A stretch of DNA of 45,379 nt from a virus (IMGVR_UViG_3300020215_000016:1-45379); one strand, 5' to 3'. Shown: positions 139 through 20,346, counted from the stretch's first letter. Notes: a model not told the origin generated them from the sequence alone. A program made the numbers and translations.

Positions 139-2166
139 ATGTACCTGAGATTGGAACCGCCGCCCCAAGTCCTCGCCGATGCCCAGAAGGAAGTCCGCGA
201 GGTCGAGCAGTATTTCAAAGCCCGCAAGCTCGGCATTGGTAAGGGGAAGCGGGACAAGCTCGACAAGTGGATCAACCGCATGGTTGAGGCGTGGGAGTCT
301 GGCACTCCCGGGCTCCGAAAGGACCTGAAGGAACTCAACGACCTGCTAGAGGGCTTCGGGGAGAATGTTGACTTCCCGTTCGGATCGGGACAGTCCTCAA
401 GCATCGACATCCGCTATGCCGCTGCCAAGGCCCGCACTCTCAGGGCCTCGTTCGTTCAGGCGGTCTTCGCCGACCCAGGTCTCTTGGTTGCTGAGACCCT
501 GCCTGGCGCCCGCCGCGGGCCGCAGGACAACCTTGCCGAAGCCGCCGTCAACTGGACGGCCAGCAAGGAAACCAATGGTATCGAGACGCTGAAGGATACC
601 CCGGTTCCTGCCTTCCGGGACGGCACAGCGTTGGTCTATGGCGAGTGGGAACGCCGGATTGAGCGTGGCGTGGACTACCGCACTTATGAGAGCGTCGAGC
701 AGTTCACGGCCGACTATCCCACCGCGAAGGCCGCGGGCCTGACCAAAGAGAAATACAACGATGTCCTAGACGAGCTCGCCCAGCCTGACGAAGAACTCCA
801 CGTCGAGTTCAGCATGGACTTTGTGGCTCAGAACGGTCCCGCCTACACCATCTTCCCGCTGGCTAAGTTTATCTGGGGACCTCTGTCTGCCAAGGACCTG
901 CGCCTTTCGGCTGAAATCTACGGTTACTACTACACCCAGACAGCTCCGTCATTCGACGCTGCGGTGGCCTACAACTTCTACGACAAAGAGCAGGTCGAGC
1001 AGACCAAGAAGCGGTCAAGCTCTGACGTAGACGAGTGGGAACGTGGGCGGGACACGGTCGAGGGAATCACCAGCGACGAGCAGGACCGCGCCACCTACAA
1101 GATTGCCCGGCTTGTCGTCTCCTACGACTTAGACGACGACGATATCCCCGAGCGGTACATGGTCTACTGGGACATGGAGGGCAAGCGGTCTCTCCGGGTC
1201 GAGCAGTACGGGCTTTGGCGCAACACGCCCTGTATCGTTCCATTCCGACTGCTAAAGCGCGATGACCGCTTCCTTGGCGTCTCTCTTCTGCGCGACGGCC
1301 GGGACTTGTTCAGGGAACTGAATGCGTTACACCGACATCGGTCTAATACCAGGCGGTTGACCGATTCAGTCACCCTCATCATCCCTAAGGCGCTCAAAGA
1401 GGACGTTGACCTCGGAGCTGAGTACGCTGAGTTCAAGCCTGGCATGACGCTTTGGGTTCCCAACGACCTACACCCGGATAAGTACCCCAAGCAGCTACAG
1501 ATATACAACCTCTCGCGTTCGGGCGACAGCGTGGATGAAGAGGGGATGATTGTCCGCTACATCGACGGCCTCATTGGGGTCTCTGAGGGCCAGTCTGGAC
1601 GGGAATCGACAGGGGACCCGAACGCCCCAGCCTCTAAGACTCGGATGCTCCTGGCCCGCGCGGATCTCCGCGTAGAAGACTTGGTCGAGGAGTGGAAGCG
1701 GTCTATCCCTGACTTCGCCGATCTCCATGTGGCCCTCTATCTCGCCAACGCCAAGGCCAAGCTCAAGTTTATGGCCATGCACGGAGGAGAGTTGCGGGAG
1801 AGCGAGGTGGCGACTCAGGTCCTTGCTGACCCTCGCCGACGGTTTGGCCTCAAGGTCAGCCGCAACGTCTCCGCGCCTGAGATGGAGATGAACAAGCTCA
1901 TGGCCTTGGTCGCCGCGGCGTTCCAGCTGAGGTTCCCGGTCATGGCCAAGCCTCAGATGATAATCGAAATCTGGAACGACTACGTCACCGCCTCGCGCAT
2001 CGATCAGCCCGAGCGGTTCATGATCGAGGCCGGCGAGAACGGCCAGGCCACCATGGGCGGTCAGCCGGTTCAGGTGGATCAACTAGGACAACAACTACAG
2101 CAGATGGTCGCGCAGATGGAGATGCAGAAGCGCGGCGTCACATCATCGGGAGGGGCAACTAAGTGA
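139..2166 (+). CDS. Putative portal protein
   Basis: 676 aa. ATG at 139 overlaps the TAA of the junction-spanning ORF (TAATG). It is the large ORF between the terL cluster and the scaffold gene. The call rests on size and position, with no motif confirmed. Confidence 0.6.
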   Translation: MYLRLEPPPQVLADAQKEVREVEQYFKARKLGIGKGKRDKLDKWINRMVEAWESGTPGLRKDLKELNDLLEGFGENVDFPFGSGQSSSIDIRYAAAKARTLRASFVQAVFADPGLLVAETLPGARRGPQDNLAEAAVNWTASKETNGIETLKDTPVPAFRDGTALVYGEWERRIERGVDYRTYESVEQFTADYPTAKAAGLTKEKYNDVLDELAQPDEELHVEFSMDFVAQNGPAYTIFPLAKFIWGPLSAKDLRLSAEIYGYYYTQTAPSFDAAVAYNFYDKEQVEQTKKRSSSDVDEWERGRDTVEGITSDEQDRATYKIARLVVSYDLDDDDIPERYMVYWDMEGKRSLRVEQYGLWRNTPCIVPFRLLKRDDRFLGVSLLRDGRDLFRELNALHRHRSNTRRLTDSVTLIIPKALKEDVDLGAEYAEFKPGMTLWVPNDLHPDKYPKQLQIYNLSRSGDSVDEEGMIVRYIDGLIGVSEGQSGRESTGDPNAPASKTRMLLARADLRVEDLVEEWKRSIPDFADLHVALYLANAKAKLKFMAMHGGELRESEVATQVLADPRRRFGLKVSRNVSAPEMEMNKLMALVAAAFQLRFPVMAKPQMIIEIWNDYVTASRIDQPERFMIEAGENGQATMGGQPVQVDQLGQQLQQMVAQMEMQKRGVTSSGGATK

Positions 2167-2546: not shown

Positions 2547-3325
2547 CACTCAAGCTCAAGCCGCAGGAAGACGGGAAGGAAGCTGAGGCCGCGGAGGAAG
2601 TCGAGACTGGCAAAGAGGGAGAGGCCAAGCCTGAGGCAGTCGTCGATACCGAAAAGGAGACTCTGAAGGCCGAGAAGGAGCGGCTAGAGCGCGAGAACGA
2701 GGAACTGCGGACCCGCAGCACGGCCCAGCCCCGCATCACCGCCGCCCAGCTTAAGGCCATGTCTGAGGCGGAGCGCGAGCAGGTCGAGAAGACGACGGGT
2801 CTGCCCTTCGATCAGGTCGTCTCCCGCGTCGAGGCGCAGGAGATCGGCGAGTCCCAAAAGCGCGAGATTTCCCGCAACGCCCGCGAGAACGTCCGGGATG
2901 CCATCGAGGACGCCACGGAGCGGGACCCGCAAATCGGCAAGCTCAAGTCCGGGATCAAGGAGTACCTTGAGGACATCAGCGACGAAGTGAAGTCCGACCC
3001 CAAGCGGCTCAAGGCTGTCATGGCCAAGGCCATCACCTACGCCCGCGGCAAGGTGGGGCCGACCCGCGAACCCGCCCGCGAGCCGAGCGGCCGAGTCCGG
3101 ATTCCCAAGCCCAACGATGAGGCCCCGTACTTTGAGGACACCGACGAGGACAATCCGAAGGCGGGGAAGATTAAGCCCGGCACCTACCGCCTCAACGACG
3201 ACTTCAAGGTGGAGATTCAAGACTTGATCCCGAAAGAGAAGCGGGACAAGTTCAAGCACCCCGAGCATCCGACCGGCGTCCGGGTGGCCCAGGACTTTGA
3301 CGAAGCCCCCAAGTTCCGGCGATGA
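2543..3325 (+). CDS. Putative scaffolding protein
   Basis: ATGA overlap. 260 aa, very Glu/Lys-rich helical protein located between portal and capsid genes. Confidence 0.6.
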   Translation: MTLKLKPQEDGKEAEAAEEVETGKEGEAKPEAVVDTEKETLKAEKERLERENEELRTRSTAQPRITAAQLKAMSEAEREQVEKTTGLPFDQVVSRVEAQEIGESQKREISRNARENVRDAIEDATERDPQIGKLKSGIKEYLEDISDEVKSDPKRLKAVMAKAITYARGKVGPTREPAREPSGRVRIPKPNDEAPYFEDTDEDNPKAGKIKPGTYRLNDDFKVEIQDLIPKEKRDKFKHPEHPTGVRVAQDFDEAPKFRR

Positions 3326-3840
3326 TCAACAGGCAGGGCGTACTACTCTCGTGCGCCCTGCCTTTGCTTTCCGGCTGTGCGACCCAGCGAGACTTCCTTC
3401 GGCACAAGGAAATTGACGAGCGCGTCGTTGAGGTCACAAGCCAGGCCATGGTGGCGCTTCAGAATCAAATCACCAGGGGCGAGAAGAACCTGAAGGAACT
3501 GGCCGACCGCGTCACGCGCCTTGAATACATTAAACGCGAGAGCGATGCCGACGGGATGGAGGATTTAAGTGCTGAGTCGCAGCAGAGCGTGGACGCTGCC
3601 TTATGCAGGTCGGGTTATTCTCTGGCCTGCGAGAGCGCGAATGGAAAGACCAACAGATACGCCGCCGCGGGCAAGCGAGCAGCCGCCAAGACCAGCGCCG
3701 AATTCTCCAAGAAGATGGCCGATGACGCTGAGTTCGACAGACTTCTCGACGAGGTTCAGCGGGATCTAGACAAGAAGCTAAAGCCGAGAGTCAAAGCCCA
3801 GGCCCATTGCGATAAGAGCGGGCCAGGATGTCACCCATGA
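3322..3840 (+). CDS. Lipoprotein, function unknown
   Basis: ATGA overlap. The N-terminus MINRQGVLLSCALPLLSGCATQ has a canonical lipobox (LSGC). Confidence 0.65.
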   Translation: MINRQGVLLSCALPLLSGCATQRDFLRHKEIDERVVEVTSQAMVALQNQITRGEKNLKELADRVTRLEYIKRESDADGMEDLSAESQQSVDAALCRSGYSLACESANGKTNRYAAAGKRAAAKTSAEFSKKMADDAEFDRLLDEVQRDLDKKLKPRVKAQAHCDKSGPGCHP

Positions 3841-3904
3841 AAACCGGGCCAAACTGGCCGTACTTTCAGCGTGACGATTTTTCTGCGGCTGGTAAACTCT
3901 AATC

Positions 3905-5142: not shown

Positions 5143-6042
5143 ATGCCCAACCCGATGAACCAGGCGAACTTCAGCTACTTCGTCCAGAAAGACCTCTCGG
5201 AGCATTTCGCCCAGGAGTACGGGGATTTTACGTCCATGATCCCGGCTCTGGCCGACATGAAGAAGCCTGACCAGGCCATCGTGTACCTGGCCCTGGTCTC
5301 AGACCTCGGCAGCGTCGGCGTCTTCGACGGCGAGGTGGCCTACGACGATGCGAAGCAGAGCTATCGCAAGTCGGTCGAAGAGGTCGAGTACGCGATGGGC
5401 CTCAAGACCACGAAGAAGCTACGCCGCAACGACCTCTACGGCATCGTTCAGGAGCAGGTGCGCTTGATGGCCCAGCGGTTCCGCTCCGCCCGCGAGGGCC
5501 TGGCGGCTGGCGTCCTCAACGGCGCCTTCTCGACGACGACCACGGCTGACGGCTTGAGCCTCTGCAACACGGCTCACACGTCCGACCAGGGCGGTTCGAA
5601 CCAGGGCAACAGCGGCACCACGGCCTTCTCGCCGGCCGCTGTCGAGGCCACGCGCCGGCTCATGATCAAGTTCAAGACGAACCGGGACAACATCCAGGCG
5701 GCCACGTTCCCGGACACGCTGATCCTGCCGACGGAGCTGGAGGAGAAGGGCTACGAGCTAATCAAGTCCAAGGGCAAGGTGGACACGGCGCTCAACAATC
5801 CCAACTTCCACGAGGGCAAGTACAAGATGGCCGTTTGGCACAACTGGCTGTCCGACGCGGACAACTGGTTCATGGCCAACTCCAAGCAACTCAAGCGGTT
5901 CTGGCGCTGGTACGACTGGAACCCGGTTGAGTTCTTCTTCGCGGGCGAGGTGGACACCATGGTCACCAAGCACGTCGGCTACATGTCCGTGAACACCGCC
6001 GTCGTCGATTGGCGCGGCATCTACGGACACTCGGTCTCCTAA
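5143..6042 (+). CDS. Putative major capsid protein
   Basis: Strong RBS taaggag. 299 aa with very high GC3. Position and size are typical of an HK97-fold capsid protein. Confidence 0.65.
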   Translation: MPNPMNQANFSYFVQKDLSEHFAQEYGDFTSMIPALADMKKPDQAIVYLALVSDLGSVGVFDGEVAYDDAKQSYRKSVEEVEYAMGLKTTKKLRRNDLYGIVQEQVRLMAQRFRSAREGLAAGVLNGAFSTTTTADGLSLCNTAHTSDQGGSNQGNSGTTAFSPAAVEATRRLMIKFKTNRDNIQAATFPDTLILPTELEEKGYELIKSKGKVDTALNNPNFHEGKYKMAVWHNWLSDADNWFMANSKQLKRFWRWYDWNPVEFFFAGEVDTMVTKHVGYMSVNTAVVDWRGIYGHSVS

Positions 6043-6658: not shown

Positions 6659-7102
6659 ATGACGAAGTTCCTGAAGAAGTTGGGTGCGCTGACCGCGGCC
6701 CTCTTGATCGTGTGCGTTGCCCTGAATCCTGCCACGGCTCGCGTCACTGGGGCCAGCGCCACGGATGCGGACGTCTTCTGCTCCGGGAACGGGGCCAACG
6801 AGGTCTGCATCGACAAGGACGGCAACTTGGTCCCCACCACGGCCTCGGGCGGCGACCTGGGCACCTCGGCTCTGCCGTTCGGCACGGTCTACACGGGAGC
6901 CCTATCGGCCACCGGCACTCTGACCCTGGCTTCCGGCGCCATCGACACGGCCAAGATCGGTTTTCAGGCAGTGGACACGCGGAAGATGCTGATCCGCGGG
7001 AACATCGACACGGTGAAGATCCTCTGCGTCGATAGCCACGCCAACTCGATCGGCTTCTACAGCATCGTGACTGGGGCCTGCTCGGCGACGGCGGTTCCTT
7101 AA
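6659..7102 (+). CDS. Small fibre-like protein with an N-terminal signal peptide
   Basis: MTKFLKKLGALTAALLIVCVALNPATA is followed by the fibre-like string DLGTSALPFGTVYTGAL. RBS gggggag. Confidence 0.65.
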   Translation: MTKFLKKLGALTAALLIVCVALNPATARVTGASATDADVFCSGNGANEVCIDKDGNLVPTTASGGDLGTSALPFGTVYTGALSATGTLTLASGAIDTAKIGFQAVDTRKMLIRGNIDTVKILCVDSHANSIGFYSIVTGACSATAVP

Positions 7103-7109
7103 ATCGAGC

Positions 7110-7484
7110 ATGAGACTGCTCTACGCGGTCTTGCTTCTGGCGAGCCTGGCCGGAAAGGTCCAGGCGCAGCAGCACGTCTATGAGACGGCGCTCGGTGATG
7201 GGTCTGTGACCAACTTCCTGGTCACGACCTCGACCGTCAATGTGGACTCCAGCACCCGCACTCTTAACTCGCGGTTCACGATGGAGATTTACAACGACGA
7301 CTCCGCGAATCCGGCGTGGTGCGCCTTCACCCTGAACGTCTCGACGATCCCAGGTAACGCGAACTACGGCCGGAAAATTCCGGCTGGCACGCCTTGGGTT
7401 CTTGCGATCCCTGACGCCGTGAAAGTCTGGTGCCGCTCCGCAGTCGCCGCGGGCGTGAGACTCGTGCTGACTCAGCTTCGGTAG
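7110..7484 (+). CDS. Small secreted protein
   Basis: MRLLYAVLLLASLAGKVQA-QQ looks like a Sec signal. 124 aa. Confidence 0.6.
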   Translation: MRLLYAVLLLASLAGKVQAQQHVYETALGDGSVTNFLVTTSTVNVDSSTRTLNSRFTMEIYNDDSANPAWCAFTLNVSTIPGNANYGRKIPAGTPWVLAIPDAVKVWCRSAVAAGVRLVLTQLR

Positions 7485-7492
7485 GAGGCCTC

Positions 7493-8011
7493 GTGTATCG
7501 ACTCGCCGCCCTGATCCTCCTGACCAGCAGCAACGCCTTTGCCCTGGGCGGTGGGGCTATCGACTCAGAGGGATTGATTGGCGCTCTCTCTGTCGGCACC
7601 TCTCAAATAGCAGCGGGATCAATCGACTCAACGAAGCTCGGCAATGGCGTCAACCCGCCCGGTGGACTCTCTGGCCCGCTGACGATTAACGGAGAGGTTA
7701 CGTTCTCAAGCGGCACGGCCAAGAGCGTGTTTGGGCACGTCGTCCTCCCCAGCCAATCGACTTTCACTCTGACCGGCGTCGGGAGCGCGGGGCTTTTCAC
7801 GTTCACCTCGGGGTCGGACGGTTGCGCCTGCGGCTTCTCTATCGAGGGCTCGGCCAATACGAGCCGCGAGCTGTACGACGGCGGCGGGCGCTGCACGACC
7901 GCAAGCACAAACGGGAGCTGCAACGTCATCTCCCTGGGCGGCGGTGCCTATGGCCTTTTTAGCGGCCGTGCCGGGACCATCACCTACACCTATCAGTTCT
8001 TGGGGTTCTGA
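7493..8011 (+). CDS. Small fibre-like protein with an N-terminal signal peptide
   Basis: GTG at 7493 lies 5 nt after taggagg. VYRLAALILLTSSNAFA-LGG is signal-like. It also carries IAAGSIDSTKLGNGV-type fibre repeats. The track start at 7430 overlaps the upstream gene. Confidence 0.6.
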   Translation: MYRLAALILLTSSNAFALGGGAIDSEGLIGALSVGTSQIAAGSIDSTKLGNGVNPPGGLSGPLTINGEVTFSSGTAKSVFGHVVLPSQSTFTLTGVGSAGLFTFTSGSDGCACGFSIEGSANTSRELYDGGGRCTTASTNGSCNVISLGGGAYGLFSGRAGTITYTYQFLGF

Positions 8012-8133
8012 TGCGGACAGCAAAAGGCCGCCTTGTCGGGGTAGCAATCGTCGGCCTAGGCCTGCTGACCCTCTCTGTCTCCTGCTCGGAAAACACTGTC
8101 ACATCCGAGCAGTCTGAGGAATTGGTGCCGTGA
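8011..8133 (+). CDS. 40-aa lipoprotein-like peptide
   Basis: TGATG overlap upstream and GTGA overlap downstream. Sequence MRTAKGRLVGVAIVGLGLLTLSVSCSEN... It is below the track length cut-off. Confidence 0.4.
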   Translation: MRTAKGRLVGVAIVGLGLLTLSVSCSENTVTSEQSEELVP

Positions 8134-8585
8134 GCATCTTTCGCGTGATCTTTGGCGGCGGATTCGCCGATGGCGCCCGGCGTCTCAGCTCCAAAGAGGT
8201 GGAGGCAATGATTCGGGCCAAGGTTCCCACCGACCTGGACACCAAGCTTAACCTTGCCGACGAGTCTTACCTTGCCCTAGAGGAAGGCCGTCTCTCCGAT
8301 TTGATCGCTAAGACCGTCCGGACACCGAGCATTCGCTATCACCGCGAATTCCCGGACTGCGACGACTTCGCCGAGATCGCCAAGGCTCAGGTGCTTTTGG
8401 GGGCCATCAACGCCCGGCTTGATCTCGCTCCCTGCTTCTTCGTGGTCGTTTACGAGTGCCAAACCGGGAAGCTGCATGCGGCAAATATCACTCTGGACGC
8501 ATCCGGGGATGTCTGTCTGTACGAGCCGCAGGCTGGAGAGTTCAAGCCGCTGTCGGACATCGAGTACGTCGTGCGGGTCGGATGA
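8130..8585 (+). CDS. Hypothetical protein with a possible transglutaminase/papain-like Cys-His fold
   Basis: 151 aa. The strings PDCDDFAEIA ... KLHAANI ... LYEPQAG resemble a Cys-His-acid triad arrangement. Confidence 0.55.
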   Translation: MSIFRVIFGGGFADGARRLSSKEVEAMIRAKVPTDLDTKLNLADESYLALEEGRLSDLIAKTVRTPSIRYHREFPDCDDFAEIAKAQVLLGAINARLDLAPCFFVVVYECQTGKLHAANITLDASGDVCLYEPQAGEFKPLSDIEYVVRVG

Positions 8586-8605
8586 GCAGGGGGAGGTAAT
8601 GAACG

Positions 8606-9325
8606 GTGGGGGATTTCTCGCGCAAACTTAGACTTGCCTTCCTGTTTTCCATCGGGCTCCTCTGCCATTCCCAGGCGGGAGCCCTCACTCTTTCCGAGGT
8701 ACGCACCGAAGCCCGCCAGCTCGATCTAGATACCGGAACGTCACGCCGCCGGTTCTCTGACGCCAGGATAAATGCGTGGATCAACGAAGCCCACCGCCTA
8801 GCGATTCTGGAGGCGCGGCCCATCGTCAGGTCTGGGGAGATCCAGCTTGCCATAGGCACGACCTACTACAACCTCCCGTCCGACTTCTTGTCGATGAGCC
8901 GGGTCAGCCTAGACTACGACCAGCTCTACGAGATCACCCCGGAAGCCCTGGACAAGGAGTCCCGCTGGCCTACGGTGGGCGCTCTGCCGACTCATTACCT
9001 GATCGACTTCGCCTCGCGGACGAAGGTCGGCGTGTATCCATACCCCAGCGACTCCTCTAGCACCGGGACCCTGAGGTACCAGTATTTCGCCCAGGCCACG
9101 GACCTCTCCGCTGACTCGGACGTTCCGTTCAACAATCTAACGGAACTCAAGCCCTATCACTACCGCCTGGCCTACTACGCCGCGGCACAAATGGCGGCCA
9201 TCGACGGCAAAGGCGCTCTGGCGATGTTCTACTTCTCGCAGTTCCGTTCGATGGTGGAACAGCTAAAGACGATGGCGAAGGACCGCCCTTCTTACCGGCC
9301 TGCGGCCATCGGGAGGCGGGAGTGA
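8606..9325 (+). CDS. Putative head-tail adaptor / tail tubular A-like protein with a signal-like N-terminus
   Basis: 239 aa directly upstream of, and GTGA-coupled to, the 919-aa ORF. This mirrors the gp11/gp12-like order of podoviruses. N-terminus: MGDFSRKLRLAFLFSIGLLCHSQA. Confidence 0.5.
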   Translation: MGDFSRKLRLAFLFSIGLLCHSQAGALTLSEVRTEARQLDLDTGTSRRRFSDARINAWINEAHRLAILEARPIVRSGEIQLAIGTTYYNLPSDFLSMSRVSLDYDQLYEITPEALDKESRWPTVGALPTHYLIDFASRTKVGVYPYPSDSSSTGTLRYQYFAQATDLSADSDVPFNNLTELKPYHYRLAYYAAAQMAAIDGKGALAMFYFSQFRSMVEQLKTMAKDRPSYRPAAIGRRE

Positions 9326-12081
9326 TTGGGTTACTACTCCTTCTACTCGCCGCGCCGCTCCGCGCCCAGGAAATAGCCCCACCCACGTTCCCGGAGGAGG
9401 CTTACGACCTTCCATTCCCCGGCGACTGCGGGCTTGTCACGCGTTACGCGGGGAACCGGATCAACCCAGCCTGTCTCCAAGAATCCCAGAACATCGTTTT
9501 TGACGAGGACCTGACCTGGAGCCGGCGCAACGGTCAGGCGAAGTACAACGCCACGCCCTGCACGGATTCCAAGTCAATTCGCGGGCTGTGGCCGTTCTAC
9601 GACACCGACAACACCAAATACCTCATCATCCTGTCTTCCGAGACTATGTTCCAGAGCAATGGGAACGGGTCTTGCACGGCCATTCCAGGGCTTTCCGGAC
9701 TGTCTTCCACCGCCGAGATGTCCTGTGTTCAGGGGCTTGGCCGGCTCTGGTGCAACAACGCCGTCAACACCCCGTTCTACATCGGCTCCGGTCTCTCCAC
9801 ATCCACCGTCCCTGGCATGCCCAGCGGGGACAAGATGGGGTTTTTCCGCAATCGCGTGGTGGTGGCCAACGTCTCCGGAGCCCTGACGAGAATCCGTCTA
9901 TCGGGGGAAGGCGACGGCACGGACTGGACGCTTCAGATACCCGGAAGGTCTACCACCCCTGCCAGCATTGACATCGCAGGCACCAATGACGGAAAGCGGG
10001 TGACGTGCCTGATCGGTGAGTATCAGAACGCCTACTACATTGGACGAGAGTATGAGACCTACGGCCTCTACGGCAACGACCGCAGGGACTTCACGCTTCG
10101 ACAGATTTCCTCCGAGGTCGGGTGCATCGAGCAAAAGAGTGTCCAGGAGAAGAACAACACCAAGCTTTGGCTATCCCGCCGCGGTGTTGAGAGGTTGAGC
10201 GGCACCACCATCAACCGCGCCTCTGATCCTATCCGCCCTGACATCGACCAGATCATCCGGGCCACCGGTAACACGCAGAGCCGCACCCTCACGACGCAGG
10301 CCGATTTCGAAGGAGGTTCGGCGAACGCGAGGGCTTCCGGCGCTGGGGCACCCATGTCTACCACCATCAGCCCGGGGAACGTGGTTCCGAGTACATGGAG
10401 CGTCGTCGATACGAGCAGCGCCCAGTTTGCTGCCGGGACTCTCGTCAACGTCAGCACCAACGTAGTCGGTTCGGTCTCGCTCGTCCAGGCGGGAAGTGCC
10501 ACGTTTACCAACGCTGGGGCCGAGTCCAACTCGACGACCATCAACATCAGCTCCAACAATTTCAGCATCGCCGCCGATTCCATGTACGGGACGAAGGCCT
10601 GGTCTACGTCTGGCCGGGGGTCTCTCTCTGAGGCGGCCAATATCACTTTTGCCATTCAGAATGAGAGCTTTCAGGTCCTCGCCAGCACCACTCTCACGGT
10701 AAACGAAGGCCAGCACACCGAAGCGGCGTACTCGATCTACACCGCCACCCTACCGGCCTCGATGATCATTCTTCGGGTGGACACGGAAAACGGGACCTTC
10801 TGGCAGTCCGTCCCGTTCATCCGGCCTCAGTCCATCAAGATCAAGCTGCGGGATTCCGACTCCTCAGACGACAACGCGATTAGCTGGGACACCGATGAAT
10901 CTGGGCCGTTCACGTTGTCAGGCAGCTTCACGCAGGCCCTCTACGACACCGGATTCTCTACGCCTATCTGGGGAACCTTCGCCACGGACATCTCCTCCAC
11001 TGCGACCGGGACTTTGACGTTTGAGGTTCAGTCCTCCACGGCCATCGACGGTGGGGGTTTCCAGAGCCTTGTCGCTCAGGCTGCTGACGTTAAGATCGCC
11101 GCGGCCTCGCGCCGGGCAATCCGCTACAAGGGCAGCTTTGCCGTCAACACCAGCACCGACACATCCCCATTGCTGCGAAGCGTCAGCCTGTCCGCGGCTA
11201 CGACCGGCTACTACATCACCGACTGCGTCAACACGGCGGGAATGAGCGCGTGGGTTCTGTTCAGGGCCAACGACGTGCCCAATGACGGGGCGGTCTCTTA
11301 CGCCCTTAGCACCGGGGCCTCCTGCAATCAGGTGACTCGCGCGACGGCGACCTGGACGACTCAGGTCAAGAACTCCGCGATTTCCCTGGCGACCGCTTCT
11401 TTCGTTGCGGCGCGAGTGGCTTTTGATTTGGACATCGCCTCGGAGGTCCCGACCTTCAACGATGCGACTTTCGAATGGCTGGCTGGAGCCTCTAGGCCCC
11501 CCGTGGCCTCTGCCGTCCATCGGGATCGCTATCACCTGTTCTACACCACAAGCACCGCATCCGGGGCCAAGAACGACCACGACGCAGTCTTAGACCAGAA
11601 CGACAAGTGGACGATCTTTGACGGGATCAACGCCTACTCGGCCACGGTCTATAACAACCAACTCTATACCGGGGACTCCAACGCCTCTGGGCTTATCCAT
11701 CAGCAGGACATTGGAAACGACGACGCTGGCTCCAATTTCAAGATGCGGTTTAGGACGGCTGACCTGGACCTGGGAAACCCCTCCCAGCTCAAGTCCTTCA
11801 AGAATCTGTACGTCACGTTGAAGTCGGAGGCTGATCCGTCTCAGAGCATCCCGCTCTCTTTCGGGTATCGCCTGGACGGCTCGACGAAGACCTACAGCCT
11901 CGGCTCTTGCGACCTCGGAGAATCAGCTGAGCCAGGGTATTTCGTCTGCAAGCTCCCTTTCCCGACAGATGATGCTGTGGACGGCCATTGGATCTCCCTA
12001 GAAGGCGAGTACAGCGGCAGCCAGGGCCCCGTAAAGATTTACAGCTTGCGGCTGACCTACGGACGCAAGGAGCAGGACTAG
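9322..12081 (+). CDS. Putative tail nozzle / tubular B-like protein with an N-terminal signal peptide
   Basis: 919 aa. MIGLLLLLLAAPLRA-QE is signal-like. It is the largest structural ORF. The function is inferred from size and gene order only. Confidence 0.55.
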   Translation: MIGLLLLLLAAPLRAQEIAPPTFPEEAYDLPFPGDCGLVTRYAGNRINPACLQESQNIVFDEDLTWSRRNGQAKYNATPCTDSKSIRGLWPFYDTDNTKYLIILSSETMFQSNGNGSCTAIPGLSGLSSTAEMSCVQGLGRLWCNNAVNTPFYIGSGLSTSTVPGMPSGDKMGFFRNRVVVANVSGALTRIRLSGEGDGTDWTLQIPGRSTTPASIDIAGTNDGKRVTCLIGEYQNAYYIGREYETYGLYGNDRRDFTLRQISSEVGCIEQKSVQEKNNTKLWLSRRGVERLSGTTINRASDPIRPDIDQIIRATGNTQSRTLTTQADFEGGSANARASGAGAPMSTTISPGNVVPSTWSVVDTSSAQFAAGTLVNVSTNVVGSVSLVQAGSATFTNAGAESNSTTINISSNNFSIAADSMYGTKAWSTSGRGSLSEAANITFAIQNESFQVLASTTLTVNEGQHTEAAYSIYTATLPASMIILRVDTENGTFWQSVPFIRPQSIKIKLRDSDSSDDNAISWDTDESGPFTLSGSFTQALYDTGFSTPIWGTFATDISSTATGTLTFEVQSSTAIDGGGFQSLVAQAADVKIAAASRRAIRYKGSFAVNTSTDTSPLLRSVSLSAATTGYYITDCVNTAGMSAWVLFRANDVPNDGAVSYALSTGASCNQVTRATATWTTQVKNSAISLATASFVAARVAFDLDIASEVPTFNDATFEWLAGASRPPVASAVHRDRYHLFYTTSTASGAKNDHDAVLDQNDKWTIFDGINAYSATVYNNQLYTGDSNASGLIHQQDIGNDDAGSNFKMRFRTADLDLGNPSQLKSFKNLYVTLKSEADPSQSIPLSFGYRLDGSTKTYSLGSCDLGESAEPGYFVCKLPFPTDDAVDGHWISLEGEYSGSQGPVKIYSLRLTYGRKEQD

Positions 12082-12088
12082 GAGGCTT

Positions 12089-12703
12089 ATGCCCAGCGAG
12101 TTCTTCATCCCCGATCTTCCCAGGCTCGACATGCCAAACAATCCATCGCAGCATGCGGATTGGGGCTTTGGCGCGGTCACGGACATGCTTAAGGGCATCG
12201 GCAACCTTCCCAAGCTCACGGATACCTTGGTTCCTCGGGTTGAGGGCATTCTGGGCCAGCAGAGCCAGTTCCTATTGCCCCAGATTGCCGGGCTGCGGGA
12301 ATTGACGGCTGGGAACGTCGCCAACGCCCAGTCCGACGCCACGGCGCGAGGTATGCGGGGCTCTGATATCGAGGCAGCCGGCATGCTCGGAGCTCGCCTT
12401 GGTGGCCAGCAGGCCGAGAGTCAGATGCGCGGGCAGTTTGGCATCGCTTCCTCCCAGACCCTTGTCGATGTTCTGACGCGAGCTATGTCCGGGGATATCC
12501 AGGCCGCAACGAACCTCCGTCAGATGCTCGCCGAAGCCATGGGCCAGCAGATCGCAGGGGAGCGGGACCTTTACCTGAACCGCGAGGCGATGTCGAACGC
12601 CAACGCTCAGGCTGAGAGAAACCGAATGTTTGCCCTGATCGGCGCTGGCATGGGGGCTGCTGGCAGCGTTGCCGGTGGCGGATTGGCAGGCAGAGGAAAA
12701 TAG
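12089..12703 (+). CDS. Putative internal virion protein
   Basis: RBS aggagg. 204 aa with a Gly/Ala-rich hydrophobic C-terminus (IGAGMGAAGSVAGGGLAG). Confidence 0.6.
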   Translation: MPSEFFIPDLPRLDMPNNPSQHADWGFGAVTDMLKGIGNLPKLTDTLVPRVEGILGQQSQFLLPQIAGLRELTAGNVANAQSDATARGMRGSDIEAAGMLGARLGGQQAESQMRGQFGIASSQTLVDVLTRAMSGDIQAATNLRQMLAEAMGQQIAGERDLYLNREAMSNANAQAERNRMFALIGAGMGAAGSVAGGGLAGRGK

Positions 12704-12712
12704 GAGAAGAAC

Positions 12713-13870
12713 ATGCCCGATTGGATACCGAGACCGCGTCTGCCGGAAAACTTGCAGTCCCAGACGGTCAACATGCAGGAGCATCAGCTTGACCCCATCG
12801 TTATGGGCGTCCAGAGCCTTGCCCAAACCCTTGGCGCGGCACTGCAACAGCGGGCACTCGCGCAGCGGGCTCCCGAAACCGACCTGCGCCGCTTGATCGC
12901 GGATTCGATGGTGCATGGGAACTTTGACCAGAGCGTCGGCCCGATGCAGCCGGGACAGTCCCGTGGCGTGGACGCAGCGTCCCTTTGGGCAGCCATGGGC
13001 GGGCGCGGGGCGATGCCTTCTGGTGTTCCGATCGGCAGAGTGAGGCCAGCCGAGGCTAAGGGCATGATGACCCTCACTGAGGAGATGCTGAAGGGCAATC
13101 CCAAGATCGCGGCTCTGGGCTACGGCGCAAACCACCAGATTCCGGTCTCCGTATTCAACACTCTGACGAAGGTCGATGATCCAACGAAGGGCGGGACTTT
13201 GGTTCAGGTCACGGCTGAGATGAAGAAGAAGAACCCCGACCTTGTTCTGGGGACCTATATCCCTGCGATGGCACCGGCCAGCCTTGCCGATAAGGACCAG
13301 GCTGCCGCTGATCGAAAGGTCGAACTGGCTGAGAAAAAGGCCGAAAAGGCTGCCGAAAAAGCGGCCGGGAAAATCACTCAGGTCAACCTGGCTGCCCGCG
13401 GCTTCGCAGATCGAGCCGAACTAGCTGAGGAGGAGCTGGCCGACATAGTGAAAGGCGGGTATGACCTCTCGTCTGTCGTCACGACGCGCGGAGAGATGGT
13501 TCCGAACGCGGTTAAATCGGATAAGACGCAGCGCGTCGAGCAGTCCATGCGGAACTTCATCAGCGCCGTCCTTCGCAAGGAATCCGGCGCTGCAATCCCT
13601 GACTCGGAGCTTGCCGCTGAGACAAAGAAGTATTTTCCAATGCCAGGCGACAAGCCTGGCGTGATTGCGCAGAAGGCGCGGGCGCGGGCGCAGGCCATCA
13701 AGAACCTTGTCGCGGAGGCTGGGGTGGCCCCGTCTACTAGAAAGAAGTCAGATGCCGTGGTCAGCCCTGATACTGCCAGCGGTCAGGCCGACATCGCCCT
13801 CCAAGGCGATAAAGCCGCTCGTTTGGCGGAACTTCGCGCCAAGGCTCAGGCTGGGAGCCTGAAAAAGTAA
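12713..13870 (+). CDS. Putative internal virion / ejection protein
   Basis: RBS aggag. 385 aa with an Ala/Lys/Glu-rich helical centre. Confidence 0.6.
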   Translation: MPDWIPRPRLPENLQSQTVNMQEHQLDPIVMGVQSLAQTLGAALQQRALAQRAPETDLRRLIADSMVHGNFDQSVGPMQPGQSRGVDAASLWAAMGGRGAMPSGVPIGRVRPAEAKGMMTLTEEMLKGNPKIAALGYGANHQIPVSVFNTLTKVDDPTKGGTLVQVTAEMKKKNPDLVLGTYIPAMAPASLADKDQAAADRKVELAEKKAEKAAEKAAGKITQVNLAARGFADRAELAEEELADIVKGGYDLSSVVTTRGEMVPNAVKSDKTQRVEQSMRNFISAVLRKESGAAIPDSELAAETKKYFPMPGDKPGVIAQKARARAQAIKNLVAEAGVAPSTRKKSDAVVSPDTASGQADIALQGDKAARLAELRAKAQAGSLKK

Positions 13871-15999
13871 TGGCCCTCAGCGAAGCGGAGGAGCTCGAGC
13901 TTCTTGAGCTAGAAAATGAGAACGCTGCGAAAGCGGCGCAATCTGGCGTTCAGTGGGAAGAGCAAGCCGTTCACGCCGAAAGCCCGCTGAACATGGCGGC
14001 CACTGTGGGGCAGGGGCTTGAGGATGCGGCTGGTTTTGTCGCGGAGCAGGGTGGGAAATTTGGCGAGAGACTGAATCAGTCTGGCCACCCTATTGCGGGA
14101 GCGGTAGTCAAAACGGCGGGGGTAATCCCTGCCGCCGGAATCTCGCTCGGTGGCGACATGGTCGGCCACACGCCCGGCGAAGTCGCCCTGAACCTCCTCA
14201 CGATGGGCGGAGCCAGCGCGATCAAGGCTGGTGCTAAAGGGCTTGGGCAGGGGGCGGCAGCCGTCGGAAACAAGCTCGCACCCGAGATGATGGAGGCGAT
14301 TCAAGCTGCGGCGAATATGGGCATTGATTTGACCCCCGCCGAGTTGACCGGCAAGAACATCCACGCCGCCGTCGAGGCTTTACTGGCCAGGACCCCGTTT
14401 TCTTCCGGTATCATGCAGCGTTTCATGGACGCCCGCATGACAAAGCTCAACGCGGCCAAGGTGGCATTGCTTGATCGCTTCGGGGCAAAGAAAGAAGTCG
14501 AGAGCATGGGCGAGGCAGCCGTAGCCAAGGCTCAGGGGATGCTTGACGCTGCCGCCACCAAGAGGGCCACCGCTACCGCCTCTGCTGAGGGCAAGATCAT
14601 ATCCGGGCGAAAGGCCCTCCTCGACAAAACCGGGGAGGCGGCGCAGCGCACGGAGTTGGGCCTGAGGATGCAGGCTGGCGCCATGAAGCGAATGGAGGCC
14701 GAGAAGGCTAAGGCCACCAAGCTTTATCAGGCCGTGCGCGATGAGATACCGCCAGAGTTGGACCTGACGCCTGCCGACAACCTGCGCGAGACTGCCCGCA
14801 AACTGCTGGAGACCAAAGGCGCGGCCCCCAGCACTCTCGGAGCTCGGGAGCGCGAGGCGCTTCAAGGCATCGTCGACGCCCCGCAGGGCCTAACCTGGGA
14901 CAAGCTCCACGAATTGCAGTCAGCCTACGGTGATGATGCTTTCAGCCTGAGCCAGTCGGACCGGAAGGCTGCGGCCATCTACGTCAGGCTGAAGCAGGCC
15001 GCCCGTGACGACATGAAGGCGATGGCTGAGCGATTGGGCGGAAGGGCCCAAGAGAAGTACGAAGCTGCGACGGCGTTCTACAAGACCTTCAGGACGGTCC
15101 ACGACAATAAGACCCTGCGCCAGTTCTTGGCCAAGAAGCCCGAGGAAGCCTTCGACATGATCGTGAAGAAGGGCGGCGTGACGGATATCCGCCGCTTGAA
15201 GGAGGCCATTGGGGAGCCCGCTTTCAATCGGACGATGCGCCGAACCTTCATGGAAAAGATGGTCGGGGCCGTGGACGGTGAGATTCCCAAGGCCGAGGAC
15301 ATCATGGCCCGCATGGCCGACTTCGACAAGGAGACCCTAAAAGAGGTCCTGTCTCCGACTCAGATCACGCAACTGGAGAAGTTCGCCAAGAGCGCCACTG
15401 TCCCCCAGTTCGTCGAGTCCGAGATCGAAGGCCGGCTGCGGAAGATGGTGGCCAAGGACCCGTCAGCGGTGGCTCGCTCCGTCATGACTGGCGACCCGAC
15501 GACGGCCCGCCTGGTCAAGAAAATCGTCGGTGCAAAAGGCTGGGAGCCATATCGCCGGCAGATGTTGGAGAAGATCATCGGCGAGTCTGGGGAGGACGTC
15601 TTCTCTTCAAACAAGATATCGAACGCGCTCAAGAGCATCCCTCCCGAGAAGCGCCGACTGTTCTTCTCTGACGCCGAGGTCAAGGAGATCGAGCAGATGG
15701 CGGGGGTGAAGAGGCTCACCGAAACCGTTGAGAAGAAGTGGGGCAACCCTTCGGGGACCGCGCGAAACCTAATCACCGGTGGCCAAGGGGCGCTCCTCAT
15801 CACCAATCCTATCACGGGTATCAAGACGGCGGTCTCGGCTGCTGTGGCGGCTAAGCTCTACACGACCACGGAAGGGCGGCGTCTGCTTAGCCAGGGCCTC
15901 AACGCTAACGAGCGCAACGCCGCCGCGGTCTTCACGCGACTGATCGGAGCTGCGAACGCCGCCAAGAAGGGCCTCGGTCAGGAGCAAGCAGGACAATGA
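13870..15999 (+). CDS. Large alpha-helical virion protein (internal/ejection or tape-measure-like)
   Basis: TAATG overlap. 709 aa, Ala/Lys/Glu-rich. Sits just before the fibre gene. Confidence 0.6.
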   Translation: MALSEAEELELLELENENAAKAAQSGVQWEEQAVHAESPLNMAATVGQGLEDAAGFVAEQGGKFGERLNQSGHPIAGAVVKTAGVIPAAGISLGGDMVGHTPGEVALNLLTMGGASAIKAGAKGLGQGAAAVGNKLAPEMMEAIQAAANMGIDLTPAELTGKNIHAAVEALLARTPFSSGIMQRFMDARMTKLNAAKVALLDRFGAKKEVESMGEAAVAKAQGMLDAAATKRATATASAEGKIISGRKALLDKTGEAAQRTELGLRMQAGAMKRMEAEKAKATKLYQAVRDEIPPELDLTPADNLRETARKLLETKGAAPSTLGAREREALQGIVDAPQGLTWDKLHELQSAYGDDAFSLSQSDRKAAAIYVRLKQAARDDMKAMAERLGGRAQEKYEAATAFYKTFRTVHDNKTLRQFLAKKPEEAFDMIVKKGGVTDIRRLKEAIGEPAFNRTMRRTFMEKMVGAVDGEIPKAEDIMARMADFDKETLKEVLSPTQITQLEKFAKSATVPQFVESEIEGRLRKMVAKDPSAVARSVMTGDPTTARLVKKIVGAKGWEPYRRQMLEKIIGESGEDVFSSNKISNALKSIPPEKRRLFFSDAEVKEIEQMAGVKRLTETVEKKWGNPSGTARNLITGGQGALLITNPITGIKTAVSAAVAAKLYTTTEGRRLLSQGLNANERNAAAVFTRLIGAANAAKKGLGQEQAGQ

Positions 16000-16688
16000 G
16001 GTTCCTAGTCCTTCTGCTGGCGACGGGGGCATGGGGCCAAGATACCCCGTTCTTCCCTCGCGCCACCGACAAGGACCAGGACATGGGCTCGATCAATCAG
16101 AACTTCCGGGACCTGGCTGACCGGAAGCGAGACGAGGTGGGCGGGGCCGCGACTCCTGGGGATACCTGCTTCGACAATCCCACGCTCTGCATCGACGCGA
16201 CCAATCACCGCGTCAACGTGGGGGCGGGGGGGATTCAGTTTAGCGACGGCTCAACTCAAACAACGGCCATTTCGACAGCATCGGCGATGGTCTCGTCCTC
16301 CTCCTATGTCACGGTGACGAACACGAACCTGACGCTCTCCGTCATGGGACCCTGCGTCACGGGCTCGACCGTCACACTTAATTGCACGTCCGGAAAGTAC
16401 CGCGTCTGCTACACCGGCACCGCTGAGAGCCAGTCGGCGGTTGAGCTTGTGCTTGGCTACCTGAGAAACGGGGGATTCGGACCGGCGCAGTCTGCCACCG
16501 TCGGGATAGCCGCCGAGTTGGTTCCAGCCGACTCCCCCGCGAACTTCTCCTTCTGCGACCCCATAGACGTCTCGGGCCAGCAAACCTTCTGCCTAACCGG
16601 CGCCCAGTCGTCCGGGTCAACGATGGAGGTCCCAGGAGACAACGGGACCTTTGACGTGCCGGGGAAATTCGGAGTGGAGTGCCGGTAA
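15996..16688 (+). CDS. Tail fibre-like protein with an N-terminal signal peptide
   Basis: ATGA overlap. MRFLVLLLATGAWG-QD is signal-like. INQNFRDLADRK and GIQFSDGSTQTTA are typical fibre strings. Confidence 0.65.
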   Translation: MRFLVLLLATGAWGQDTPFFPRATDKDQDMGSINQNFRDLADRKRDEVGGAATPGDTCFDNPTLCIDATNHRVNVGAGGIQFSDGSTQTTAISTASAMVSSSSYVTVTNTNLTLSVMGPCVTGSTVTLNCTSGKYRVCYTGTAESQSAVELVLGYLRNGGFGPAQSATVGIAAELVPADSPANFSFCDPIDVSGQQTFCLTGAQSSGSTMEVPGDNGTFDVPGKFGVECR

Positions 16689-16963
16689 TGGACATTGATC
16701 CAACGAAGCTCAAGCACCGCGAGCTGCTGCTACTCCTCTATGAGAGAGTAGACGGCATGGATAGGAAGGCTGATGAGCGGGCGGCGGCGCAGGAGAAGAA
16801 GGACGCCAGCCAAGACACGGCCATTGACGGGATAAGCTCCCGCGTCCGCTCGCTTGAGAATTACCGCCTGTTCGTCGGCGCGGCCTCCGCTACTGTCGGG
16901 GCCGTCGTCGGGCTCATTTACAAGGCTTGGCCCGCCATTTCATCTGTTATGGTGGCCCACTAA
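16688..16963 (+). CDS. Membrane protein with a C-terminal TM helix (holin or lysis-accessory candidate)
   Basis: TAATG overlap. 91 aa with a coiled N-terminal part and the TM segment LFVGAASATVGAVVGLIY. Confidence 0.5.
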   Translation: MDIDPTKLKHRELLLLLYERVDGMDRKADERAAAQEKKDASQDTAIDGISSRVRSLENYRLFVGAASATVGAVVGLIYKAWPAISSVMVAH

Positions 16964-17442
16964 TGGCCTGGGACGGTGAGGAGATCCAGCGCGTTTGTGA
17001 ACTCGCGCTCAAGATGAAGGACAGGCCCTACCAGTTTGGGGCGAAGTGGCCGCTGACGGACACGAATCCTCAGGCCCCGGTCGATTGTTCGGGTTTCTCT
17101 CGCTGGATCATCGGGCAGGGCCGGGACGCTCACGGACGGCAGATAGTCCTTCCTCACGGCTGCATCAACCAGATCAAAGTGTGCAAACCGCTGGCCTTAG
17201 AGCGTCCGCTTGTCCTGGACCTCGGATTTGCGGATCTCATCGGACAGGACGGGGCGCCTGATCACGTCGTCGTCCGCATCAGCGAAAGCTTGGTCATCGA
17301 GGCTCGCGGCTGCAAGACTCACCTGGGCCACAAGCCGGAACTCTGCCCGTATAAGAAGGTCGTCCTGCGCCCTGCGGCGGTCTGGGACGCCCAGAAAGGC
17401 TTTATGGGGTGGTGGCGGGTTCCTGGTTTGAGGGATGGATGA
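16963..17442 (+). CDS. NlpC/P60-family cell-wall peptidase (endolysin)
   Basis: TAATG overlap. The catalytic-Cys motif PVDCSGFSRWI is followed by APDHVVV. Confidence 0.75.
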   Translation: MAWDGEEIQRVCELALKMKDRPYQFGAKWPLTDTNPQAPVDCSGFSRWIIGQGRDAHGRQIVLPHGCINQIKVCKPLALERPLVLDLGFADLIGQDGAPDHVVVRISESLVIEARGCKTHLGHKPELCPYKKVVLRPAAVWDAQKGFMGWWRVPGLRDG

Positions 17443-17606
17443 GGTGGCTCTTTCGCTGGATTCGACTTCAACGACAGGGAGACTTCAGCATTCCAATCTC
17501 GATCACGGGCGCAGAGTTGGACCCGTGCCAGTTCCCGGGATGCGGGATTCGGCGGCAGGATCACAGCTTTAAGACGCAAAAACATCACTTCGCGGAGGCA
17601 TCATGA
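17439..17606 (+). CDS. Small hypothetical lysis-module protein
   Basis: ATGA overlaps at both ends. 55 aa. Confidence 0.35.
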   Translation: MRWLFRWIRLQRQGDFSIPISITGAELDPCQFPGCGIRRQDHSFKTQKHHFAEAS

Positions 17607-18082
17607 ACGGAAAGGCTAAGTTGAGCGTGTTGGACTACCTGAAACTTCTCTGGGGCGGTCGGCCTGTTTTGGAAGAGGCCATCGAGCAAGGCAAGGTCGT
17701 CTCCGTTGCCGCGCACACCTCTGGCGTCAAGACTCTGGCCTTCTGGGCCACTGCTTTGGCCTCCGTCTCCGCTGTCGCCGCCCAGGTCGGTGGACTTGTC
17801 CCGCCGCCTTATGGTGCCATCGTTCTGGCGACCTCCCCACTCCTCTATGCCATCAGCAGGGGCCTGGTGAAGCGAGACGACCCCTTGGGGGGAGCCAAGC
17901 CAGCCCTGGCTCGTTCCGAGGTCTTGGCGAACATCCTGGCGGCTGCGGGACAGGTCGCCTTGGCCGCTGGCCACGCCACTTCCCCGGAGACGGCGGTGAT
18001 TCTGACCACGGTCCACGCCGCCGCCATCGCCGCGGCCGATGCTTTGGCCAAGAGTGGGGCGCAGCCGGTCCTGGAAAAATAG
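17603..18082 (+). CDS. Multi-pass membrane protein (holin candidate)
   Basis: 159 aa with 3-4 Ala/Val/Leu-rich hydrophobic segments. It is the last gene of the late operon. Confidence 0.55.
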   Translation: MNGKAKLSVLDYLKLLWGGRPVLEEAIEQGKVVSVAAHTSGVKTLAFWATALASVSAVAAQVGGLVPPPYGAIVLATSPLLYAISRGLVKRDDPLGGAKPALARSEVLANILAAAGQVALAAGHATSPETAVILTTVHAAAIAAADALAKSGAQPVLEK

Positions 18083-18182: not shown

Positions 18183-18233
18183 TTTGAGGGGCGTATGCCG
18201 AAAGGCGTGTGGGTTCAAGTCCCACCCCGCGCA
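18183..18233 (+). other. attP core candidate: 3' part of a class II (Leu-like) tRNA
   Basis: The sequence ttGAGgg gcgta t gcc-gaaa-ggc gt gtggg-ttcaagt-cccac cccgcgc a contains an anticodon-loop-like segment, long variable arm, T arm and 3' acceptor strand. No matching 5' acceptor or D arm lies upstream. It is 28 nt from the integrase stop. Confidence 0.6.
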
Positions 18234-20131: not shown

Positions 20132-20346
20132 AGTGGGACACTGGGCGGAGCGTCGGGGTCGGAGGTTGGGCTTAGCTGATTCACAACCCAATCCCTGCTC
20201 CGCATTACCTGCCACTCAATGTCGGCCAACTCTTTTTGACGTTGATTAAGCTCTCCTATCCATAGGGCGAAAGCAATCAGATACCAGGCCCAAGCGTGGG
20301 TCAGCCCAAATCCATGGATAAGGATGCAGGCGATAAATAAAGTCAT
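20128..20346 (-). CDS. Small membrane protein
   Basis: 72 aa with two hydrophobic helices. ATGA overlaps on both sides. Confidence 0.55.
   Translation of the reverse strand: MTLFIACILIHGFGLTHAWAWYLIAFALWIGELNQRQKELADIEWQVMRSRDWVVNQLSPTSDPDAPPSVPL

Follow-up and report, generated by a model that had tools for sequence, protein, structure and literature searches.

Predicted export signals on the adaptor, nozzle and fibre proteins of an uncultured SU10-like podovirus, and a possible two-compartment route of virion assembly

We analysed a stretch of virus DNA, IMGVR_UViG_3300020215_000016 (positions 1-45379; hereafter the window, meaning the whole 45,379-nt stretch), whose late genes follow a podovirus-like order of portal, scaffold-like protein, capsid, small proteins, adaptor, nozzle, three further proteins, fibre and lysis functions. 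A preliminary description of the window, made from its sequence, had drawn attention to eight open reading frames (ORFs) whose N-termini resemble Sec or lipoprotein signal peptides, and we found all eight in the places it had given, with the N-termini it had reported. It had also called export signals on tail components, the nozzle included, unexpected for a tailed phage; this view is upheld by the folds of the proteins concerned and by the conservation of their leaders among homologues, as set out below. Signals were called by explicit rules, with one fixed rule for the nozzle, adaptor and capsid homologues, together with comparative evidence from a relative, L001, from five more diverged relatives, L005-L009 (G+C content (GC) 38-57%; in L005 the contig end cuts the adaptor N-terminus), and from the same phage assembled elsewhere (L002-L004).

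All eight ORFs lie on the plus strand. Six of them are taken to be conserved virion genes, and their leaders lack a lipobox. Small tail-module protein A (6659..7102, 147 aa) begins with a 27-aa signal peptide (nt 6659-6739) that has K3, K6 and K7 in its n-region and a predicted cleavage site NPATA/RV (a slash marks cleavage throughout), and small tail-module protein B (7110..7484, 124 aa) with one of 19 aa (nt 7110-7166) that has R2 in the n-region and predicted cleavage at KVQA/QQ. The fibre-like protein C (7493..8011, 172 aa) starts at a GTG that has AGGAGG 6 nt upstream and is also the start picked by an independent gene caller; its 17-aa signal peptide (nt 7493-7543) has R3 in the n-region and is predicted to end MYRLAALILLTSSNAFA/LG (AFA/LG). 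The head-to-tail adaptor (8606..9325, 239 aa, GTG start) carries a 26-aa signal peptide (nt 8606-8683; R6, K7 and R9 in the n-region) with predicted cleavage at HSQAGA/LTLSE, and the nozzle protein (9322..12081, 919 aa, GTG start) a 15-aa signal peptide (nt 9322-9366) that reads MIGLLLLLLAAPLRA/QE (LRA/QE) and in which the N-terminal amino group alone charges the n-region (MIGLLL...). The last of the six is a fibre-like protein (15996..16688, 230 aa) with a 14-aa signal peptide (nt 15996-16037), R2 in the n-region and the predicted site MRFLVLLLATGAWG/QD (AWG/QD).

The two other ORFs are lipoprotein-like. The one at 3322..3840 encodes an accessory lipoprotein of 172 aa, MINRQGVLLSCALPLLSG/C, in which the canonical L-S-G-C lipobox that had been claimed for it is present (LLSG/C, with the cysteine at position 19). 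The 40-aa ORF at 8011..8133 (LTLSVS/C), a public gene call, had likewise been described as lipoprotein-like; a cysteine does follow its hydrophobic stretch, but the lipobox, S-V-S-C, is non-canonical at -3 and the ORF is doubtful. Both look like window-specific accessory lipoprotein genes, and no orthologue of 3322 was found at that position in L001, L006, L007 or L008. The ORFs at 7493, 8011 and 8130 have the appearance of an insertion specific to the window; L007 too has a third small protein with a signal peptide (a weak DUF5907 match), which L001, L006 and L008 lack. The ORF at 8130-8585 (plus strand) encodes a protein of 151 aa without a signal peptide and with an Agglutinin_C match (E = 7.5e-7, above threshold); it lies between the small signal-bearing proteins and the adaptor, a slot that holds no such gene in L001, L006 and L008.

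We considered whether translation really begins further downstream, as the preliminary description had allowed for, so that the hydrophobic stretches would be either not translated at all or a product of chance. In favour of this, GTG is the start codon of three among the eight ORFs, and there are short leaders. Nevertheless, a Shine-Dalgarno (SD) motif or a stop/start overlap precedes the flagged ORFs (the nozzle GTG overlaps the adaptor stop), and the independent gene caller uses the same starts in L002-L004. Downstream starts do not hold because the adaptor and nozzle ORFs have no further in-frame ATG, GTG or TTG within their first 70 codons, and the next possible start in the fibre gene at 15996 would remove its conserved mature N-terminus. 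With the leaders kept in more than 200 homologues at GC from 38% to 60%, an annotation artefact is effectively refuted.

We are confident that 8606..9325 encodes a true head-to-tail adaptor, on Pfam and fold evidence alike. The protein scores 89.1 bits against PF24175 SU10_adaptor (cutoff 27), with model position 2 falling at residue 28, and its AlphaFold2 (AF2) model (predicted local distance difference test score, pLDDT, 92) finds as best Foldseek matches the adaptors of GP4, A4, SU10, Pa223, KHP30, N4 and crAss001 (template modelling (TM) scores up to 0.63/0.71, probability 1.0). The 26-aa leader precedes the Pfam domain and, because the solved GP4 adaptor begins at the same mature boundary, it is an add-on to the known adaptors; the protein is thus a variant of the SU10-type adaptor rather than a non-member, and the leader is its point of difference. 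The 919-aa protein encoded immediately after it had been presumed to be the nozzle, and its AF2 model (pLDDT 88.6) matches nozzle chains: the top 29 Foldseek matches in the PDB are all podovirus nozzle or tail-tube proteins (E down to 6e-19), among them those of Pa223, LME-1, VP1, Carin-1, SU10, T7 (gp12) and P22 (gp10). By its modelled fold, then, 9322..12081 encodes a true podovirus nozzle built on a beta-propeller.

The proteins at 6659, 7110, 7493 and 15996 had no Pfam, PHROG or PDB-sequence match and their roles are positional. The protein at 15996 is probably a fibre, judging from its gene position, conserved N-terminal module and variable C-terminus; in its orthologues (L001, L005-L008) the signal peptide is followed directly by a D-x-P-[FY]-[FY]...IN-x-NFR module. 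The orthologues of 6659 (L001:8188-8805 and L007:6844-7473) retain both the signal peptide and a mature motif, R-[VL]-T...C-x8-C, and those of 7110 in L001, L006, L007 and L008 all have a signal peptide.

Whether the hydrophobic N-termini are conserved in homologues, a comparison the preliminary description had proposed, can be answered clearly for the adaptor and nozzle. Signal-peptide-like, tripartite leaders with plausible small-x-small cleavage sites were found in 60/64 nozzle homologues (30-100% identity), while the leader sequence itself is not conserved, and the four exceptions are truncated or have dubious N-terminal calls (P0029 is over-extended, P0033 short). Under the same rule 76/82 adaptor homologues were positive, the remaining six being fragments or over-extended calls; in an exhaustive search a hydrophobic core was present in 128 of the 131 full-length adaptor representatives among the best 146. 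By comparison, none of 120 major capsid homologues was signal-peptide-like under the full rule (a hydrophobic core alone was seen in one), and none of the 20 late proteins of a cultured control, Alcaligenes phage QDWS535, had a signal. The difference between the adaptor and nozzle homologues and those of the capsid is far beyond chance.

The leaders have the grammar expected of signal peptidase I substrates. We aligned 79 adaptors on their conserved mature start, LTLSE[IV]RT, and found position -1 to be A, S, C, G or T in 79/79 and position -3 to be A, S, V, G, C, L, I or T, again in 79/79, with a variable and often bulky or charged residue at -2 (H, G, F, Q, R, E, W and others), with Pro enriched at -4/-5 and absent from +1; this small-x-small site abuts the conserved LTLSE, that is, the domain boundary, in every one of them. 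The median extension is 24 aa, the n-region has a net charge of +1 to +5 in 75/79, the best hydrophobic 8-residue window has a median Kyte-Doolittle hydrophobicity (KD) of 3.1, and uncharged runs are typically long, with a median of 17 residues. The corresponding sites in the window are ATA/R, VQA/Q, AFA/L, AGA/L, LRA/Q and AWG/Q. The mature nozzles are poor in K/R from +1 to +6 (16 K/R versus 61 D/E), as expected for Sec substrates. Taken together, these features argue that the leaders are genuine cleavable Sec-type signal peptides with a signal peptidase I site at the domain boundary, and the N-terminal propeptides that the preliminary description had listed among its explanations would be real in the form of a cleaved leader, predicted from this invariant site. 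At +1 of the nozzles Q is the commonest residue (at least 37/60); it is found there also in several fibres (window 15996, L001 and L008), while adaptors have Leu. Such a Q might become an N-terminal pyroglutamate after cleavage.

Other kinds of leader were considered and rejected. The twin-arginine translocation (Tat) motif S/T-R-R-x-F-L-K occurs in none of the eight window leaders (RR was seen in a few nozzle homologues only, e.g., P0007 with MTRRALF), and the type IV prepilin motif (G, then F/M-x-x-x-E) occurs in no leader examined. A signal-arrest-release (SAR) domain, which is weakly hydrophobic and rich in Gly, Ala and Ser, does not fit Leu-rich cores with an invariant (-3,-1) site.

In two further explanations the hydrophobic segment itself has a task. 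In one, which corresponds to the membrane-anchored assembly offered in the preliminary description, the N-termini are transient or uncleaved inner-membrane anchors that gather tail parts at the membrane and so act as an assembly platform or timing device while virions are completed in the cytoplasm; T4 proheads do begin on the inner membrane, and AF2 models the leader as a single helix. Yet nothing in an anchor calls for an invariant (-3,-1) site and Pro at -4/-5, and the cores, being Leu-rich, are not SAR-like. With positive charge in the n-region and acidic residues at the mature start, moreover, the orientation to be expected is N-in/C-out, which would put the body of the protein in the periplasm; we regard this explanation as quite unlikely. 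In the other, the helices are retained on virion proteins and act during infection, e.g., by insertion into the host envelope, as podovirus ejection proteins insert into membranes. The leaders are strongly hydrophobic, as such a role would ask, but the same feature is present on five to seven different tail proteins, even on the adaptor at the portal interface, its cleavage grammar is conserved, and the proteins that are ejection proteins by position have no such segment; retention is, in our view, highly improbable.

The signals are not spread evenly over the virion. In L001 and L006-L009 signals are present on the adaptor and nozzle, on one or more fibres and on two or three of the small proteins. 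In these relatives as in the window, the portal and capsid protein are without one, and so are the lysins and the three post-nozzle proteins. The three post-nozzle proteins of the window (12089..15999, plus strand; 204, 385 and 709 aa) have neither a signal peptide nor a cysteine and, by analogy of gene order with T7 gp14-16 and SU10 gp18, are probably needle or ejection proteins; the first of them, whose gene (12089-12703) comes next to that of the nozzle, might not be an ejection protein but a needle or spike. This 204-aa protein lacks a Peptidase_S74 domain; its counterpart in L007 (12954-13871) has one at its C-terminus (an intramolecular chaperone domain), and by eye the domain is apparently present in the L001 counterpart (L001:12670-13617) as well. 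Downstream of the fibre gene, the lysis region (16688..18082, plus strand) encodes three proteins, none with a cleavable signal peptide: a protein of 91 aa that has a transmembrane segment at its C-terminus, a multi-transmembrane protein of 159 aa and a candidate endolysin (16963-17442, 159 aa) with an NlpC/P60-like DCSGF motif. None had a Pfam match, and the functions suggested here are read from their sequences.

A second property sets the signal-bearing proteins apart. The mature parts of the proteins at 6659, 7110, 7493, 9322, 15996 and 3322 have 4, 2, 4, 12, 8 and 4 cysteines (those of 3322 counted after Cys19), as compared to 0 in the post-nozzle proteins. Nozzle homologues have 6-22 cysteines, an even number in 49/64, and in their alignment eight pairs of cysteine columns are gained or lost together almost perfectly: C80 and C118 are both present in 26 homologues and both missing in 25, C135 and C144 both present in 49 and both missing in 2. 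In the AF2 model C135 and C144 are opposed, in register on neighbouring strands of a beta-hairpin. A C-x7-C pair in the fibre behaves similarly, with four relatives having the pair and two lacking it. The nozzle pattern is that of putative structural disulfides, bonds that form in the periplasm and not in the bacterial cytoplasm, and it lends indirect support to the view that the tail proteins would be translocated through SecYEG and cleaved.

These observations bear on another account, in which each tail protein has a dual fate: part of it is sent to the envelope for a task outside the virion, such as receptor masking against superinfection or against re-adsorption to debris, or help with lysis, and the copies used in virions are those left behind in the cytoplasm by a Sec pathway that is saturated late in infection. 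Exported phage proteins are encoded near tail genes elsewhere (lambda Lom and Bor, T5 Llp, Cor), the lipoprotein-like accessories 3322 and 8011 lie in the same module here, and head-tail joining would stay cytoplasmic. Against this, the adaptor and nozzle bind no receptor, so masking cannot explain their signals; the cleavage site falls exactly at the mature adaptor start in 79/79, which implies that the processed form is functional; and the paired cysteines suggest oxidative folding of the structural proteins themselves. We think a dual fate unlikely. The related suggestion in the preliminary description, that the signals mark exported proteins that are not part of the virion, is excluded for the adaptor and nozzle and is possible for 3322 and 8011 only.

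The reading that we favour, somewhat more probable than its negation in our judgement, is that Sec signals have been added to the external tail parts of an SU10-like podovirus, so that the tail is exported and joined to heads at lysis. Late in infection, the tail proteins would pass unfolded through SecYEG, signal peptidase I would cleave them at the conserved small-x-small site, and they would fold, with disulfides, and presumably pre-assemble in the oxidising periplasm. Meanwhile the portal, scaffold, capsid and post-nozzle proteins, which have no signals, would build and fill heads in the cytoplasm. In SU10 a C-terminal loop of the adaptor is wedged between portal subunits and the fibre N-termini dock on the adaptor (PMC9509320), and therefore head and tail partners must meet physically. 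In the proposed route they would do so only once the inner membrane is breached, by holin lesions and then breakdown of the wall; at that time the outer membrane might still hold the contents together, or lysis might just have taken place. In-vitro joining of lambda and T4 heads and tails and the addition of tailspikes to P22 heads are long established, and because of these precedents late joining is chemically plausible. The wider statement, that a whole uncultured clade builds its virions in two compartments, with cytoplasmic heads, a Sec-exported and disulfide-bonded tail, and joining deferred until the inner membrane is breached, is one that we put forward tentatively and hold to be possible, a little short of an even prospect.

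Several points weigh against the proposed route. It would require that a membrane keep the exported adaptor from the portal until lysis, though the solved podovirus adaptors wedge into the portal, and head-tail joining in a lysing cell or in a lysate could be inefficient. Filled heads of P22- and T7-type phages tend to leak DNA when they lack tails. The possible tail needle after the nozzle has no signal; we can only speculate that a needle in this position plugs the tail-less heads. The mature adaptor has few cysteines, and therefore oxidative folding is not the reason for its export. As to the nozzle, the co-occurrence of its cysteine pairs may be partly inflated by shared ancestry, and disulfides could instead form after release. 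Lastly, at 14-15 aa several signals are uncommonly short.

The window is a complete phage genome. A 127-nt exact direct repeat (window 1-127 = 45253-45379) indicates a circular assembly of ~45,252 bp, with a GC of 60.6%. Besides the genes already described it encodes a portal protein of the SU10 type (139..2166, plus strand; PF23899 SU10_portal, phrog_1216), a major capsid protein (5143..6042, plus strand; PF25209, phrog_371), an integrase (18261-19427, minus strand; PF00589, PF13102), a large terminase (42146-43726; phrog_2) and an annotated small terminase. Directly after the large terminase there is a GroES-like co-chaperonin (Cpn10, E = 1.4e-6; 43726-44046, plus strand), and a GroES is likewise encoded, after the portal gene, in the distant Alcaligenes phage. 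Between the scaffold-like gene and the capsid region, 3905-4276 (plus strand) encodes a conserved 123-aa protein with two CxxC pairs and with orthologues in L001 and L006-L008; a public gene caller has an overlapping minus-strand ORF here (3778-4272). The early and middle regions have ordinary temperate content, e.g., an HNH endonuclease (33511-34122), an N6 DNA methylase domain (27704-28519) and a NinG-like protein (26938-27615). In the lysogeny region by the integrase, 20128-20699 (minus strand) encodes two small hydrophobic proteins, one of them ending FASLAS/C (lipoprotein-like), which may be membrane proteins expressed by the prophage.

No cultured phage is close to this genome. The capsid protein matched known phages at 28% identity or less throughout, the nearest cultured one being QDWS535, and tblastn searches of 50,697 GenBank phages with the adaptor and four nozzle variants found no match other than the distant uncultured MW202497. 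A scan of GTDB species genomes for prophages, by single protein and by profile, gave no relative, and a scan of IMG/VR gave one. A profile search of 1.84 billion representatives for PF24175-type adaptors returned 6,754 matches, 227 of them at E<=1e-30, and the clade with leader-bearing adaptors comprises at least 130 adaptor clusters at 50% identity.

As a hint to the host, the preliminary description had pointed to a tRNA attB, and a 51-nt 3' half of a tRNA-Leu(GAG), running from the anticodon loop to the discriminator base, does adjoin the integrase. This candidate attP core (18183..18233, plus strand) has the last lysis gene on one side and the integrase on the other; the tRNA fragment was spotted by eye, and ARAGORN and Rfam searches of the window reported no RNA gene. 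The 25-nt T-arm and acceptor portion is shared by 65 metagenomic tRNA-Leu loci, and all 51 nt by two of them only (L030 and L050). L030 is an 88.9-kb contig with GAPDH, PGK, malic enzyme and GltD genes whose proteins are deposited under an Elusimicrobiota metagenome-assembled genome (MAG), and its tetranucleotide usage, like that of three high-GC contigs of which L046 and L026 are labelled Elusimicrobiota, is similar to the window's (r = 0.91-0.93). The same 25-mer occurs at a low-GC locus from Omnitrophota. No lysogen junction was seen, and we treat the attP match as a lead towards an Elusimicrobiota host, not as proof. The MAG names on contigs of the clade that hold phage genes only conflict (Methylomirabilota, Verrucomicrobiota and Bacteroidota for P0031, P0092/P0160 and P0152) and were set aside as unreliable host evidence. 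The frequent Q after the cleavage sites resembles the "Q-rule" of Bacteroidetes and suggested a Bacteroidota host, which we judged unlikely given SD motifs on 55-83% of the genes. The lipoprotein genes and a Wzy_C gene in the relatives fit diderm hosts; the latter (L007:22522-22898, minus strand; O-antigen polymerase-like) lies beyond the lysis cassette and suggests lysogenic conversion of a diderm host surface.

An uncultured host could also account for the signals in a different manner, if virions matured in a compartment that Sec can reach or if heads arrived in the periplasm well before lysis. The candidate hosts leave some room for the unusual cell biology that the preliminary description had listed among its explanations: Elusimicrobiota are the best lead, Omnitrophota have the same tRNA core, and both are ultra-small diderms. 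But the lysis genes of these phages are ordinary ones (amidase, M15, NlpC/P60-like), there are no signals on their terminase, portal or capsid proteins, and we found no sign of such a compartment, which makes a host-specific topology improbable.

Should the two-compartment route be confirmed, compartmentalised assembly would be categorically new for the tailed phages (Caudoviricetes), whose morphogenesis is in the textbook view wholly cytoplasmic. The protein families are known; what is new is the leader, the cysteine pattern and the assembly route that they imply, and our full-text literature searches on signal peptides and phage tails returned no report of signals on adaptor or nozzle proteins; no paper turned up under the sample accessions either. 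A clade whose adaptor, the protein that has to clasp the portal, bears a cleavable export signal departs from the textbook view, and the implication is that assembly is compartmentalised or else that viruses have found a new use for the Sec pathway. If the route is real, phages would gain oxidative folding, and with it disulfide-stabilised tails, and the coupling between lysis timing and assembly would be viewed differently. Annotation is affected too, as tools often take a signal peptide as an argument against a virion role. The leader also makes it simple to recognise, from sequence, a phage lineage that is widespread and uncultured and that may infect poorly known ultra-small diderm bacteria if the Elusimicrobiota lead is right.

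The closest known systems are the podovirus tail machines (SU10 gp11/gp17, T7 gp11/gp12, P22 gp4/gp10, GP4, Pa223 and A4), in which the adaptor and nozzle have the same folds as here and assemble onto the portal in the cytoplasm. The gene order of portal, scaffold, capsid, adaptor, nozzle, post-nozzle proteins and fibre is shared as well, and the portal and adaptor of the window belong to SU10 Pfam families. However, the known podovirus adaptors and nozzles have no N-terminal signal, whereas the adaptor, nozzle and fibres of the window have cleavable leaders and paired cysteines abound in its nozzle. Signal peptides and disulfides go unmentioned in the SU10 paper (PMC9509320).

The filamentous phage Ff resembles the present phage in another respect, as its pIII and pVIII are likewise virion structural proteins with N-terminal signal peptides; signal peptidase I processes these proteins, and their assembly takes place outside the cytoplasm. 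The Ff virion is extruded through the envelope, however, with neither a capsid nor lysis, whereas here a signal-less, DNA-filled icosahedral head would be combined with an exported tail, and lysis genes are present. Sec-exported and SAR endolysins and o-spanin lipoproteins are late proteins that cross the inner membrane via host Sec and wait for the holin, but these are lysis proteins and not parts of the virion, and SAR domains are weakly hydrophobic and uncleaved, unlike the Leu-rich leaders with AxA-type sites described here. The exported prophage morons (lambda Lom and Bor, T5 Llp, Cor) are likewise signal-peptide or lipoprotein genes inside the late or tail region, and 3322 and 8011 may be best compared with them; morons are non-structural, whereas the adaptor and nozzle are structural by fold and their signals are conserved across the clade. 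Finally, the extracellular tail development of Acidianus two-tailed virus is a precedent for morphogenesis that is finished outside the cytoplasm or the cell, although this virus is archaeal, does not belong to Caudoviricetes and makes its tails from material in the released particle, not from separately exported subunits.

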